A DNA stretch of 64,000 bases from Nitrospirota bacterium (GCA_029261135.1 JAJDBX010000005.1:2231-66230), one strand, 5' to 3'. Counted from the stretch's first letter, positions 49,817-54,770 are shown. Numbers and translations: made by a program. The notes: generated from the letters alone by a model not told the origin.

Positions 49817-50998
49817 CTATTCTATTCTGCCGAATTCCTTCACCACTTCAAAAACCACATTGGCTGTTTGGGCCATTTCTGAGAGGCTGACCCATTCTCG
49901 GACGGTATGGATTTGGTGCATACCCGTCCCAAGGTTAGGGACGGCGATGCCTCTTTCGTTTAAAATATTTGCATCGCAGCCGCCGCCTGTTGCATTTGTT
50001 TGCACCTTGTAGCCGCATCTTTCTGCGGCTTGGAGTACCGCTTCCACAATGGGTGAATTCTCAGGAAGATTGATCGGGTTGTAATCCCGCCAAATTTTTT
50101 CTTCGATTCGTCCGGTGACCCGCTTGCCGCTGACATCGATTGAAAACTTTTCAAGCGCCTCCTGAAAGCAGGCGCGCATATGATCAGTTTGTCTTTTTAA
50201 TTTTTCAATGCTGTGACTCCTGGATTCGGCCCGCACCCTTACCGTTTTTGGCACAATATTGACGGCAGCACCACCCTCGATGAGCCCGATATTCGCAGTC
50301 GTCTCAGAATCAATTCGTCCGAGAGACATGCGGCTAATGGCTTCTGCGGCAATTTGAATCGCAGAAATCCCTTCTTCAGGGCAAACCCCTGCGTGCGCTT
50401 CAATACCATGAACTGTAAACTCATGCCGATCAGAGGCCGGAGATTGCGTGAAAAGGAAATCAGCGTTGTCACAGTCGAGTACAATGCCAAATTTTGAATG
50501 GAGTTGTGAGATATCGAGGTGTTTCACCCCGACAAGTCCGTATTCTTCACAGATGGTCAACACCACTTCAATTTCTCCATGTGGCATTTCTTGTGCTGTA
50601 AGTGTCCTTAAAACTTCAATAATGATGGCAATACCTGACTTATCATCGCCACCCAAGATCGTCGTTCCGTCGCTACGAATAATATCCCCTTCACAGATGG
50701 GTTTGATCCCTTCACCGGGGACAACCGTATCCATATGTGCTGAAAGCAGGATAGGCTGCCGCCTTGGGTCGCTCGCCGGGATCCTCGCAATCATGTTCCC
50801 AACCTCTCCACCCACGGCTTCTCCGGCATCATCATAAATCACTTTCGCCCCGATGGCTTCGAGGTCTTTCTGAAGTGAAAGTGCGACAGCACCTTCTTTT
50901 TTGGAAATACTGTCGATTTGAACCAAAGACAAAAAATGATCTTTCATTCGCTGTATGTTCAATATGGACAGATCTATATTTAGGGTAGATTGAGTCAA
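49817..50998 (-). CDS. M20 family peptidase T-like metallopeptidase
   Basis: AHMDTV, LGGDDKSG, CEEYGL, HAGVCPEEG, GGGCDAN, IHTVRE. Confidence 0.92.
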   Translation of the reverse strand: MTQSTLNIDLSILNIQRMKDHFLSLVQIDSISKKEGAVALSLQKDLEAIGAKVIYDDAGEAVGGEVGNMIARIPASDPRRQPILLSAHMDTVVPGEGIKPICEGDIIRSDGTTILGGDDKSGIAIIIEVLRTLTAQEMPHGEIEVVLTICEEYGLVGVKHLDISQLHSKFGIVLDCDNADFLFTQSPASDRHEFTVHGIEAHAGVCPEEGISAIQIAAEAISRMSLGRIDSETTANIGLIEGGAAVNIVPKTVRVRAESRSHSIEKLKRQTDHMRACFQEALEKFSIDVSGKRVTGRIEEKIWRDYNPINLPENSPIVEAVLQAAERCGYKVQTNATGGGCDANILNERGIAVPNLGTGMHQIHTVREWVSLSEMAQTANVVFEVVKEFGRIE

Positions 50999-51981
50999 CT
51001 CACACTCCCATCTTCATCCTGGCGCTTGAGGTGAGATAGAACGGCTTCAATCACAGTTTCGGGATGGAGACGGCTAAATTGGCTCTTGCCTTCTTTATCT
51101 GTATATTTAAGTACAGAGGTCATCGCACGTCCGGGGTAATCTTCGGCCAACCAAAGACCACTGGGATTGGATTCCGCTCTGTTGAGGACTTCCGCAAGGT
51201 TTTTCATCGGAATTTTCATAATCTGAGGACGGGTCACCGTCTCCGCCCAGGCATAATAACGATATTCCAACTCATAAGCATAACCGCCACCGGTGTGCTC
51301 TCGATCTTCAACCACAAGAAAAAGATCGCCTTCGCAATAATGATCAATGGCTTGCCGGGCAGGACGTTTTTCATCAATAATCACAGAGAGCCTTTCATCT
51401 TCGTGTTCTTCGACCCCGATAATGCCTTTTTCAAAGAGCGCCATCGAATGCAGAATTCTCTCAAAATTTGCTTGCCATAAAGGGCGATATCGGTCTTTAT
51501 TTTTGAAGAGATCGGGGACAACAGGCAGAATATATTTATAGTAGGCGGCCTCCAGAGGCCCATCATAGGAGGTGATCTTTCCAGCGAAAGGACTTTCATT
51601 ATGATGGCAAAGCGCATGAATGAGCAAGTTCAGCTGAACCCCTTCTTCAGAAGAAAAGGCGGAAAAATCACCTGCTTCAGCCGCTGAAATCATGCGGCCT
51701 GCCAATGGCTCTGCTTTTTTGGGATTAAGCAAGGCCCAGATCGATAAAAGCCCATCTGTGTCAAAATGATTATTGGTAATAATGCGATACTGAGGAAAAA
51801 GGTCTTTGCGTTTTGGGTGGCAAAGATAACGAAAAACGATCTCAGTTGCGGTATCCGCCTTAAAAGGGACGGGCGTTTGATTCCCTCTCCAATGACTGAG
51901 GTGCGCGCTGTTAGGGACAAGACCATCGACTGAGATCTTGTCGACATCTTTCATCGCATTTTCATAAAAATAGAAGACCAT
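50995..51981 (-). CDS. DHH-like hypothetical protein (DUF6687-like)
   Basis: SVDG, LSHWRGNQTP, ADTATEI, NNHFDTDGLLSIWALLNP, AEAGDF. Confidence 0.65.
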   Translation of the reverse strand: MVFYFYENAMKDVDKISVDGLVPNSAHLSHWRGNQTPVPFKADTATEIVFRYLCHPKRKDLFPQYRIITNNHFDTDGLLSIWALLNPKKAEPLAGRMISAAEAGDFSAFSSEEGVQLNLLIHALCHHNESPFAGKITSYDGPLEAAYYKYILPVVPDLFKNKDRYRPLWQANFERILHSMALFEKGIIGVEEHEDERLSVIIDEKRPARQAIDHYCEGDLFLVVEDREHTGGGYAYELEYRYYAWAETVTRPQIMKIPMKNLAEVLNRAESNPSGLWLAEDYPGRAMTSVLKYTDKEGKSQFSRLHPETVIEAVLSHLKRQDEDGSVS

Positions 51982-52183
51982 TGTGTAAAAAATCCGATGA
52001 ACTATTTTGCTTTTCGAAGATCCTCTTCTAGCTAGTTCCTAGAGTGGTCATGAGCTGTCCTTAAACCGCCCCACTATATCAAATATACAAATTCAATTCA
52101 AAAAAAGGTAGTGTCTCAGTTTGAAAAAGGGCCGTATTTAAAAACCTTCTGGAAAATAGTATAATGTACTCGGAGGTTATTAG

Positions 52184-52411
52184 ATGCCAAAAGGCCCAAA
52201 AGGTCAAAAAAGACCCGCCGATGTTGTTGGTTGTGCCGTTATGGTTGCCAAGATAGCGACGGGCGAAGAAGAAGAAACAAAGGAAAAGTCCGGTCGTGTC
52301 CGTTCGGGCAAAGCCGGAGCAGAAGCACGTAAGAAATCCCTCACCCCAGAAGAACGATCCCAAATTGCCAGAAAAGCGGCTAAAGCGCGGTGGAAAAAAA
52401 ATAAAGTTTAA
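52184..52411 (+). CDS. Small basic IS-associated protein
   Basis: MPKGPKGQKRPADV...LTPEERSQIARKAAKARW; SD GGAGG and TATAAT upstream, just inside the left TIR. Confidence 0.8.
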   Translation: MPKGPKGQKRPADVVGCAVMVAKIATGEEEETKEKSGRVRSGKAGAEARKKSLTPEERSQIARKAAKARWKKNKV

Positions 52412-52719
52412 TATTTCCCCTTAAATTCCTCATATAAATCTAATTGCTGTTGTAACACTTCTATAAATTTAGGCATACGATCTGGGGTTATAATAACGCT
52501 TCCAACACAATCCGCTGTTACTACCGGATTATCATTGAACTTGTCTTTGTCGTTTTCCTCAATGAGAATCGGACGCTGAATCTCAAAAAATGAAACTTTA
52601 AATTCTGACTCAATGATCTGCACAACCATATTAGTGGCAAACCTTGTTATAATGCCTTCTGGAATATTGTATTTCATTGACGGTTCTGGTCTTTCTTTTA
52701 CTTTCTTCTCTTTTGACAT
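52408..52719 (-). CDS. DUF3467-like protein
   Basis: FATNMVVQ..EFKVSFF...VGSVIITPDRMPKFIEVLQQQLDLYE pattern; SD AGAGGA. Confidence 0.6.
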   Translation of the reverse strand: MSKEKKVKERPEPSMKYNIPEGIITRFATNMVVQIIESEFKVSFFEIQRPILIEENDKDKFNDNPVVTADCVGSVIITPDRMPKFIEVLQQQLDLYEEFKGKY

Positions 52720-52771
52720 TGCTTTAAGTCCTCTGCAAACGTTTGAGGGTCGGTCATGGCCAGGTTCCGCC

Positions 52772-53308
52772 TTATGCTGCTACGGCTTTTGGCCCTTCCT
52801 TATGTGGGTTGCTTCCGCCAAAAATAGGATAATAGGGTCTTTCTAGCTCTTTCCCTGCATGTCCGTCTTGAGCGTTGCTTAGTATTCTCACGAGATTTTC
52901 TTCGGTTTGCGTGTCCCCATTTTCAAGCATGACTTTTTTAGATTCATTAAATTTTTCTTCGTCAAAGCTTTTTACCTGTATGTCTTCGGGTGACAAGTTA
53001 ATCTCCCAGTTTATTAGTTCGCTGAATGGGGCAAATTTAACTACCAAGCCAACATCAAAAACGGACGCAAATTCTTGAAGAGTAGCAAGAGAAAATTTAG
53101 AGTAATTTGGATTTTCAATCTTTGATATCCATGCCTGTGTTTTGCCTGATTTTTCCCCTAATTCTCTTTGGGTCAATTTCTCTTTTTTTCTAAGGGCTTG
53201 TAGTTGAAAAGGAATGGCATTATTAATATGTTCTAAAACAAAAGCATCTCTATATTCTTTATTTTTCAATTTTCTAATCAATTTCTTTTTACGCGTATCA
53301 GAAGTCAT
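52772..53308 (-). CDS. XRE-family HTH antitoxin-like protein with a C-terminal extension
   Basis: LRKKEKLTQRELGEKSGKTQAWISKIEN HTH; overlaps the upstream toxin stop. Confidence 0.85.
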   Translation of the reverse strand: MTSDTRKKKLIRKLKNKEYRDAFVLEHINNAIPFQLQALRKKEKLTQRELGEKSGKTQAWISKIENPNYSKFSLATLQEFASVFDVGLVVKFAPFSELINWEINLSPEDIQVKSFDEEKFNESKKVMLENGDTQTEENLVRILSNAQDGHAGKELERPYYPIFGGSNPHKEGPKAVAA

Positions 53309-53675
53309 CGAGATACCCCCTATCCTTATTTATCAAATCCATTCTATTAACGGCTAACTTTGGCGCATTTTTTGGATCTAATTTATCACCATGCTCTTCT
53401 GCACCAACAAGCAATGTGAACTCTCTTGGCCCAGGGCCGAAAAACCCTAAAGGTCGATATTGAGTGTTTTTATGTATAACCTTTATTTCATAAAGTTTTT
53501 TATGACTTTTGTATTTTCTTGCATAATTCATAGGCCAACGGAGTGTTACTTCTAAGTATGAAACTCTTCTCTCTATAGCGGCTCTACCTGACACGGGCAA
53601 TGAATTAAGCCATTTTTCTATCTCACTGTGTAGATTATTTCTTTTTCTAAAGGTTTTAAATGTATAGTATCTCAT
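53298..53675 (-). CDS. RelE/HigB (Gp49-like) type II toxin
   Basis: IEKWLNSL...KLYEIKV...QYRPLGFF..FTLLVGAEE; basic 125-aa ORF directly upstream of the HTH gene. Confidence 0.75.
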   Translation of the reverse strand: MRYYTFKTFRKRNNLHSEIEKWLNSLPVSGRAAIERRVSYLEVTLRWPMNYARKYKSHKKLYEIKVIHKNTQYRPLGFFGPGPREFTLLVGAEEHGDKLDPKNAPKLAVNRMDLINKDRGYLDDF

Positions 53676-53679
53676 AATA

Positions 53680-53733
53680 ATATAATAATATTGTTATTTC
53701 TGCAAGGAAGATAATATATAATAATATTGTTAT
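53680..53733. repeat. Tandem 18-bp quasi-palindromic operator-like repeats
   Basis: ATATAATAATATTGTTAT at 53680-697 and 53716-733, immediately upstream of the toxin ATG. Confidence 0.65.
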
Positions 53734-53858
53734 ATCGCCGGATTAGTTTAAATAAACCGTTAGATTATAACAGAGGAAAGACATACATACTATCTGAAGA
53801 ACAGATTGTAGTGAACTTTATGCTTGGTATTTAGTGTCCACCATGTTAGATTAAGACC

Positions 53859-54716
53859 ATGAAAAAGTTGCAACTACATAAACGAACTCAAATCCTTCAC
53901 ATGTTAGTGGAAGGCTCCTCTATGAGATCAATTTCAAGAGTCGTCGGCGTATCAATCAACACGGTCACTAAACTCTTGGTGGATGCTGGCAAGGCTTGTG
54001 CGGCTTACCATGACAAACATGTGCGTAACGTGAAAGCTACACACGTTCAATGTGATGAGATTTGGTCATTCTGCTATTCAAAACAAAAAAATGTGGACTA
54101 CAACAAAAAAGACCAAGAAGGTGCCGGTGATGTCTGGACATGGACGGCCCTAGGTTCTGAAAACAAGATGATAATCTCTTGGTTGGTTGGTGGACGTGAT
54201 TCTGGTTATGCTCTTGAATTTATGGATGACCTAAAGAGTCGATTAGCAAACCGAGTGCAACTCACTACAGACGGGCACAAAGCCTATCTTGAAGCCGTAG
54301 AGGATGCTTTCGGTGCCGACGTAGACTACGCCATGCTGATCAAGCTCTATGGAGAACCAAGCGAAAAGGGAAACGAGAAAAGATATAGTCCGGCTGAATG
54401 GACAGGGTCAAAAAGAAAAACTATCTCAGGTCGTCCAGACTATGACTCAATCAGCACATCCCACGCTGAACGTCATAATTTAACCATGCGGATGAGCATG
54501 AGACGGTTTACGCGCCTGACAAATGCTTTCTCTAAAAAACTGGACAACCATTGTCACGCGCTGGCTCTATATTTTATCCACTATAATTTTGTTAGAATTC
54601 ATAAATCACTTAAAGTCACCCCTGCTATGGCATCCGGAGTTTCAAGCCGACTTTGGGATATGGAAGATATTGTGGATATCATTGATGAATATCAAATGAA
54701 AAGAAAATCAAACTGA
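53859..54716 (+). CDS. IS1-family DDE transposase
   Basis: N-terminal HTH (GSSMRSISR), [43 protein letters not shown]; stop codon lies within the right TIR. Confidence 0.92.
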
Positions 54717-54770
54717 GACACTACCCAAAAAAATATTATTCCGTTCATTGACTTTGGCGTTAAAAACCAT

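Follow-up and report, generated by a model that had tools for sequence, protein, structure and literature searches.

A mobile IS1-family element carries a three-gene operon: a gene for a predicted mRNA-cleaving toxin of the HigB type, one for an XRE antitoxin that likely restrains this toxin and has a variable C-terminal tail, and one for a small DUF3467 protein. By analogy with toxin-antitoxin-chaperone (TAC) systems, the operon is read as TAC-like, with DUF3467 as the protein that binds the antitoxin tail and stabilises it (probability roughly 60%). Since the same trio is found in dozens of related sequences, the small third protein likely has the role that belongs to SecB in the known three-part toxin-antitoxin (TA) systems. 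The analysed stretch of 64,000 nucleotides from a Nitrospirota bacterium (GCA_029261135.1, JAJDBX010000005.1:2231-66230) is referred to as the window. The three open reading frames were located on the minus strand in the order and place proposed by an earlier sequence-only reading (Table 1); toxin and antitoxin frames overlap by 11 nt, and 52 nt separate the antitoxin gene from the DUF3467 gene.

Table 1. Positions of the IS1-family element, its passenger genes and their features, counted from the first nucleotide of the window.
Feature	Position	Strand	Evidence or remark
Left 8-bp target-site duplication copy	52099..52106	+	
IS1-family element with passenger genes	52107..54725	+	2,619 bp; terminal inverted repeats, target duplication, empty site
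Left terminal inverted repeat	52107..52124	+	18 nt, 100%
Small basic 75-aa ORF of the IS backbone, convergent with DUF3467	52184..52411	+	92% identity over 61 aa to sister element
DUF3467 protein, 103 aa, proposed tail-binding partner	52408..52719	-	PF11950, 28.9 bits (cut-off 25)
XRE/HigA-like antitoxin, 178 aa	52772..53308	-	HTH_3, E 1.2e-10
Variable C-terminal tail, about residues 122-178, ending Val-Ala-Ala	52775..52945	-	Homologue comparison
RPYYPIF patch, residues 157-163	52820..52840	-	Private to the window copy (1/59 tails)
Asn-Leu-Val-Arg-Ile (NLVRI), residues 138-142	52883..52897	-	Aliphatic motif common to 12 other tails
Predicted HigB/RelE-type (Gp49 family) toxin, 125 aa	53298..53675	-	Gp49 and relatives
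Two AT-rich imperfect palindrome copies	53680..53736 (53680-53700, 53716-53736)	-	95% identical; directly before toxin start
Single-frame IS1-family DDE transposase, 285 aa, divergent from cargo operon	53859..54716	+	PF03400 at cut-off
Right terminal inverted repeat	54708..54725	+	Perfect 18-bp repeat pair
Right 8-bp target-site duplication copy	54726..54733	+	

The trio forms the entire cargo of the element and sits between the small ORF and the transposase gene. All defining IS1-family traits were found (inverted repeats, target duplication, DDE transposase and mobility), and the IS link suggested earlier turned out to be stronger than claimed: the trio lies inside an element with 18-bp repeats, an 8-bp duplication and empty sites. 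The transposase matched NF033558 at E 3.8e-19, below the cut-off of that model. GC content of the element is 39%, versus 46.5% for the window. The empty-site joint (52098-54726) was recovered in contigs of three of four DNA runs from one study. In the same runs the empty site was covered more deeply than the element, and loose contig ends pointed to further insertion sites. Given these joints and the loose ends at other sites, the element is mobile and polymorphic. In its surroundings (window 50995-51981), the element has a DUF6687 gene on one side and the stretch that precedes rho on the other, and both are intact.

A sister element in the same genome (L214, G000:C54:19971-22866) has identical inverted repeats, an 8-bp duplication of its own and an 80% identical transposase. 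Its cargo consists of a 396-aa HTH and M78 peptidase protein and a 160-aa protein without assigned family. As the HTH-M78 protein is a homologue of PD-Lambda-2_B (E 3.7e-44), the cargo slot appears to hold defence-type genes. From this cargo context a phage-defence role of the trio is plausible, and it is less certain than the link between tail and partner. GGTAG-ended inverted repeats, an 8-bp duplication, a single-frame DDE transposase, a small backbone ORF and exchangeable cargo are shared with other IS1-family elements with passengers; unlike in those, the cargo here is a tripartite TA module, with an HTH-M78 peptidase pair in the sister element. Elements of this kind may go under the label 'ISMhu11 group, transporter IS'; no paper bearing that group name was found in the literature search.

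The toxin matched Pfam Gp49 (PF05973) at E 1.7e-4, slightly below cut-off, and its assignment rests on relatives, namely on Gp49 matches of homologous upstream genes and on a 29-sequence profile. Gp49 was matched by 27 of 39 scanned upstream toxins of DUF-anchored loci (among the matches listed) and by 5/5 of antitoxin-anchored loci. The best solved match of the profile was the TAC toxin HigB1, at a weak E of 0.0085; a search with the single toxin sequence found no solved relative. Toxin residues E63, K65 and R74 align with E66, R68 and R77 of HigB1, which are named as proposed catalytic residues in the accessible text of PMC9098466. At position 95, 21 of the 29 homologues have a Lys that aligns to the essential K95 of HigB1; because the window copy has His in its place, this toxin may be weak. 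The PADLOC check recommended by the sequence-only reading came back negative, with no model matching either toxin or DUF3467. Where scanned, the upstream genes of L050, L070 and L071 (group D toxins, ~150 aa) matched nothing in Pfam, NCBIfam or PADLOC; they possibly constitute an undescribed toxin family.

The AT-rich palindromes in front of the toxin are likely operators of the XRE protein. Similar repeats and a TTGAC-type hexamer precede most of 21 homologous toxin starts (among the matches listed). In most of the 21 homologues listed, just 23-27 nt separate the -35-like hexamer from the toxin start (window 53676-53740). This region and the homologous loci have no Shine-Dalgarno sequence at the toxin start, and the opposite strand often has a second hexamer. 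The layout suggests that the toxin mRNA is leaderless or nearly so; a second, divergent promoter may face the transposase and perhaps share operators with the toxin promoter. A sigma-70 promoter scan gave hits at chance level (12 vs 9).

The antitoxin profile matched HipB, HigA2 and HigA structures. Across 15 homologues the core (residues 1 to ~121) was conserved and the ~57-aa tail was not, in agreement with the C-terminal extension described at the outset. For tail analysis, 59 non-redundant DUF-linked tails were used, with 11 near-duplicates and 3 unanchored rows left out. Their length was 35-107 aa (median 57, among the matches listed), vs a mean of 14-18 codons for a chance open run. Asn, Thr, Ser, Gln, Ala and Glu are high in the tails and Phe, Trp, Leu and Gly low, with Phe at 0.51x and Trp at 0.56x of background. 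No motif was universal across the 59 tails. The RPYYPIF patch, which the sequence-only reading had noted as aromatic, is indeed present in the window copy; as a family recognition motif it was rejected, being found in 1/59 non-redundant tails, and aromatic clusters were not enriched either (18/59 tails vs 14.5 expected; the observed count was reached in 290/2000 shuffles). An aliphatic motif, [NK][VIL][VIL]x[FILM], was picked post hoc and occurred in 13/59 tails vs 2.2 expected (0/2000 shuffles), most carriers belonging to one core group. Its form in the window copy, NLVRI, is a candidate binding strand. Ala-Ala ends were counted in 7/59 tails vs 8/1543 long host ORFs; tail-less antitoxins often end in Ala-Ala too. 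The Val-Ala-Ala end of the window copy resembles the C-terminal ClpX degron of a TAC antitoxin, as far as this is described in the accessible part of PMC8165232. Antitoxin relatives were present in 0 GenBank phages and 1 PLSDB plasmid.

For the locus scan, 20 close DUF3467 sequences served as query, the 145-row DUF alignment being too diverse for this purpose. The scan yielded at least 72 metagenome loci and one viral locus, which were reduced to 60 clusters at 90% identity. The co-occurrence of DUF3467 with tailed antitoxins that the sequence-only reading had asked about is recurrent: among the matches listed, 52/60 non-redundant close relatives lie directly behind an antitoxin, and the trio recurs far above chance. 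The 52 antitoxins comprise 49 XRE, 2 partial XRE and 1 HicB (PF05534) proteins, and the 49 XRE cores fall into four groups labelled here as A/B (26), C (17) and D (6), again among the matches listed. The remaining 8/60 clusters (matches listed) were placed before a HicB-looking gene (1), had other neighbours (4) or came without upstream DNA (3). A tailed antitoxin also preceded the DUF gene in 3/4 fetched matches with E<1e-30 from GTDB samples. Neither GenBank phages nor PLSDB plasmids yielded a DUF relative.

Behind DUF3467, 31/53 TA-linked clusters (among the matches listed) have an IS-type small ORF. One IS vehicle is common to many loci, which are therefore not independent. The count of 31/53 would also fit a joint capture, by an IS cassette, of an ordinary two-gene HigBA pair and a hitch-hiking DUF3467, with the tail as a by-product that has no functional link; that the tail physically adjoins the DUF gene and that 4 clusters have the DUF without TA (among the matches listed) point the same way. 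We consider such an origin very unlikely, as five antitoxin groups keep open 35-107-codon tails beside DUF3467, the same position is taken in 10 loci by distant DUF3467 lineages that fall outside the main clade, and in others by SecB, and DUF-first arrangements with other TA-like pairs exist.

Mirror order (DUF3467, antitoxin-looking gene, toxin) was seen at L119:1480-2408, L184:800-1875, L037:2075-2751, L159:959-1815 and L185:225-2010. Some of these antitoxins have an apparent N-terminal extension; the toxin of L119 is PemK/MazF by Pfam, and the others were called by eye, with no family match. At L120:1426-2129 and L122:1100-1878, the gene after DUF3467 encodes a protein whose N-terminus is of low complexity and whose C-terminus has a membrane segment; the two genes could form a different sort of partner-effector pair.

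Starting from the antitoxin, a long-core set of 21 loci was chosen blind to the third gene (one duplicate and one unfetched match excluded). A third gene was present in 17/21 loci, with tails of 43-107 aa. These third genes were 11 DUF3467 (two below cut-off), 1 DUF6941 and 1 look-alike, 3 members of a ~220-aa family and 1 unassigned protein. Three of the 21 loci had no third gene and tails of 14-24 aa, and 1/21 was cut by a contig end. The short-tailed controls are weak: 2/3 are orphan phage genes without toxin, and the third has a toxin fragment only. In the more distant HigA-like short-core group, 4/26 loci had tails of at least 43 aa, and each of these had a third gene; three of the third genes encode SecB, one copy being interrupted by a stop, and the fourth an 84-aa protein. 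The other 22/26, which represent two groups of near relatives, had mostly basic tails of 0-37 aa and neither SecB nor DUF3467. Long antitoxin tails are associated with a third gene. Because tailed HigA-like antitoxins are followed by DUF3467 in some loci and by SecB in others, DUF3467 fills, by gene position, the SecB slot that had been suspected for it.

Canonical HigBA-SecB TAC loci occur in the host phylum (L129, L133 and L134; SecB of L133 is split by a stop codon), and no SecB was found in the 95% complete host genome. The other families seen in the slot behind a tailed antitoxin are the ~220-aa family (L004:3605-4276, L008:3579-4268, L125:677-1429), DUF6941 or its look-alike (L009:3471-4010, L088:3602-4048) and the 84-aa family (L128:962-1216); they are candidates for additional antitoxin partners. 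Assignment of the ~220-aa family to TIGR04255 was rejected by NCBIfam, and the family matches only unnamed Atlas clusters.

Tails partly appear to follow the DUF gene across unrelated cores. On a quick tree of DUF3467 (112 columns, 43/103 forks open) the TA cores are interleaved: a HicB locus is sister to an XRE locus (SH-aLRT 97), and group A cores lie within the group D clade (SH-aLRT 97). Among cross-family pairs, the 20 whose DUFs are most similar had a mean tail-similarity z of 2.7 vs 0.44 permuted (0/5000). When the related core groups A and B were merged, z of the top 20 pairs was 1.3 vs 0.40 permuted (78/5000), and pairs chosen by core likeness gave about 0 (-0.05). Antitoxin tails of groups A and D with sister DUFs have a Gln-Tyr/Phe-Thr-x-Ile-Pro-Thr-Ala stretch in common. 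Nearest-neighbour agreement between tail and DUF was found in only 26/51 loci, and the tail of the window copy itself shows no co-transfer signal (best z 2.6). The co-transfer signal rests on few clusters, and physical linkage could account for it or contribute to it. The pattern mirrors the transferability of chaperone-addiction (ChAD)/SecB pairs between TA systems reported in the accessible text of PMC5105189.

The identification of the third gene as DUF3467-like held at the Pfam cut-off (Table 1), and 125/145 rows of the DUF alignment match the PF11950 family at E<=1. By sequence, the third partner was also correctly called non-SecB. The window protein matches PF11950 alone, and SecB is absent among the best 25 families listed for the 145 alignment members. 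CmdC models matched 0/145 members and a control SecB at E 3.8e-17, and control SecBs from the same searches were recognised as SecB. Comparison of the DUF profile with a profile from two SecB controls, shallow on the SecB side, gave a probability of 0.5%. At the sequence level, the third gene has no likeness to SecB.

For fold comparison, the window DUF3467 was modelled (pLDDT 94) as a three-strand beta-meander that has a short inserted helix and ends in a long helix at the C-terminus. Best structural matches of this monomer were COMM domains (Z 5.8) and Pur-alpha (5.1), in a middling range. P0055 and P0178 are natural tandem DUF3467 duplications in a single chain. The model of P0055 (unaltered, pLDDT 84) matched Drosophila Pur-alpha repeats I-II (3k44) with Z 8.9, rmsd 3.0, 99 aligned residues and 13% identity, followed by MRP1/2 (6.1) and Whirly (5.8). 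Foldseek also ranked PURA first for P0055 (E 0.018); in PDB and viral models it gave no match at E<=0.001 for DUF3467. The comparison with SecB proposed beforehand placed SecB in none of the fold-search lists for DUF3467 models, and a sequence search with the DUF profile found no relative of solved structure. DUF3467 is predicted to be a Pur-alpha/PC4-like dimer with two beta-meander-helix units per domain, formed by dimerisation or tandem repeat. It would share the beta-meander plus swapped helix with PC4-like, Pur-alpha and Whirly proteins and COMM domains; unlike these, it is without sequence likeness to them, slightly acidic, has an extra helix insert and stands in TA operons. A complex prediction with 4 DUF3467 copies and antitoxin residues 110-178 scored 0.00; as the controls were not folded, this score speaks neither for nor against tail binding.

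According to the available text of PMC7549692, the ligands of the solved relatives of the predicted fold (Pur-alpha, MRP1/2, Whirly, PC4) are mostly single-stranded nucleic acids, not peptides. DUF3467 could accordingly be imagined as a single-stranded DNA/RNA binder that senses such nucleic acid from phages or transposition, or that helps to regulate the divergent promoters of toxin and transposase, with tail contact only as a switch. The sequence-only reading did not raise this possibility. Its best fold matches are nucleic-acid binders, the conserved residues R26, aromatic 27, N30, Q34 and F45 could form a sheet surface, and another DUF3467 clade stands behind lexA and before repair-type genes. 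We nevertheless regard this role as unlikely. With a median net charge of -2 (window copy -3), the family is slightly acidic, against the highly charged binding surface of Pur-alpha-type binders described in the accessible part of PMC13392464, and this slight acidity suits the binding of peptides no less than that of nucleic acid. Moreover, the top matches of the monomer, COMM domains, are protein scaffolds with a similar dimer, and nucleic-acid binding alone would leave the upkeep of the tails unexplained.

PF11950 was matched in 28/201 genomes of the host phylum, where the strong matches, like most weak ones in two other phyla, are stand-alone or behind lexA; the host genome has one stand-alone copy on another contig. 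That most DUF3467 genes outside the TA-linked clade stand alone or follow lexA counts against the tail-binding view. TA-linked relatives belong to the same Pfam family as the stand-alone proteins, unlike which they form a clade of their own (60 rows, SH-aLRT 98, quick tree). Besides this main clade, TA-linked DUFs include distant lineages with 10 loci, a pattern as expected if a housekeeping protein had been recruited repeatedly. The lexA-linked clade (L196-L213, relatives of an Acidobacteriota genome) has lexA immediately upstream and endonuclease III-like or DinB-like genes downstream; the lexA neighbour was confirmed by Pfam for L203 and by eye for other members. An SOS role of this clade is possible.

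LexA repressor fragments are protease substrates. That the lexA-linked clade follows a repressor, and that Ala-Ala-type ends are enriched in the tails, would suit a DUF3467 that acts as a proteolysis adaptor, binding the tail and handing the antitoxin to ClpXP or another protease to promote toxin release. A constitutive, co-transcribed adaptor would, however, free the toxin permanently, and the slot is otherwise occupied by SecB, a stabiliser; an adaptor function therefore seems quite unlikely.

Under the preferred reading, DUF3467 as stabilising partner of the tail, the trio is compared with the TAC systems HigBA1-SecB(TA) of M. tuberculosis, HigBAC, MqsRAC and CmdTAC (PD-T4-9) of E. coli, and HicAB-TAC, as covered in the accessible portions of PMC5105189 and bioRxiv 10.1101/2024.02.24.581848. 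Shared with these are the order toxin-antitoxin-third gene in one operon, with a type II pair of the HigBA/MqsRA/HicAB kind and a HigB-type toxin, and an XRE antitoxin tail that is variable in length and sequence, has a small hydrophobic C-terminus and is missing from two-gene relatives (controls partly weak). In both, the same type of third gene occurs with several TA families including HicB, and tail and partner apparently move together. Unlike in TAC systems, the third gene has no SecB homology by sequence and encodes a predicted Pur-alpha/PC4-like dimer, the DUF-linked tails lack the aromatic recognition pattern that defines known ChADs, and the trio is carried inside an IS and is known here from sequence and predicted structure. 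As SecB homology and aromatic motifs are absent, the trio is not classed as TAC; by analogy, it appears to work like a TAC system from outside the family. SecB-type and ParA-type third components, not DUF3467, are named in the accessible parts of PMC11980606 and bioRxiv 10.64898/2026.10.19.760177. The TAC and tripartite-TA literature searched contained no such system, and for DUF3467 only a mention in one unrelated paper and no functional paper was found (subscription papers and bioRxiv supplements were outside reach in both searches). Within the same limits, PF11950, DUF6941 and TIGR04255 were not mentioned in the literature, and the supplements of PMC13069673 and PMC10440598 held no match.

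From the architecture, the following mechanism is proposed. The tail would be an unstable, degron-ended extension that destabilises the antitoxin. A DUF3467 dimer would bind it, possibly by adding the short aliphatic strand to its sheet, and would thereby protect the antitoxin. DUF3467 would be titrated away by a rival ligand, for which a phage protein is the most plausible candidate, by analogy with HigBAC and CmdTAC; the antitoxin would then be destabilised and the toxin RNase freed. For HigBAC, release of the RNase through chaperone competition by a foreign protein is described in the available text of bioRxiv 10.1101/2024.02.24.581848.

More tentatively, tail addiction may operate with several unrelated folds. 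DUF3467, as a Pur-alpha/PC4-fold dimer, would then be a second, SecB-independent class of antitoxin chaperone and phage sensor, with tail-partner cassettes swapped among HigBA, HicAB and other cores in the IS1-family cargo slot. The DUF6941, ~220-aa and 84-aa families would be further sensors, and the mirror-image operons, with the partner first and an N-tailed antitoxin, would be included too.

TAC systems described in the literature searched use a SecB-like chaperone that is also the phage sensor. If the reading proposed here is true, a tail plus a dedicated partner would be a general, convergent control principle, and DUF3467, a widespread family, would receive its first function. The PC4/Pur-alpha fold would be extended to peptide binding, and small, swappable sensor modules would be gained.
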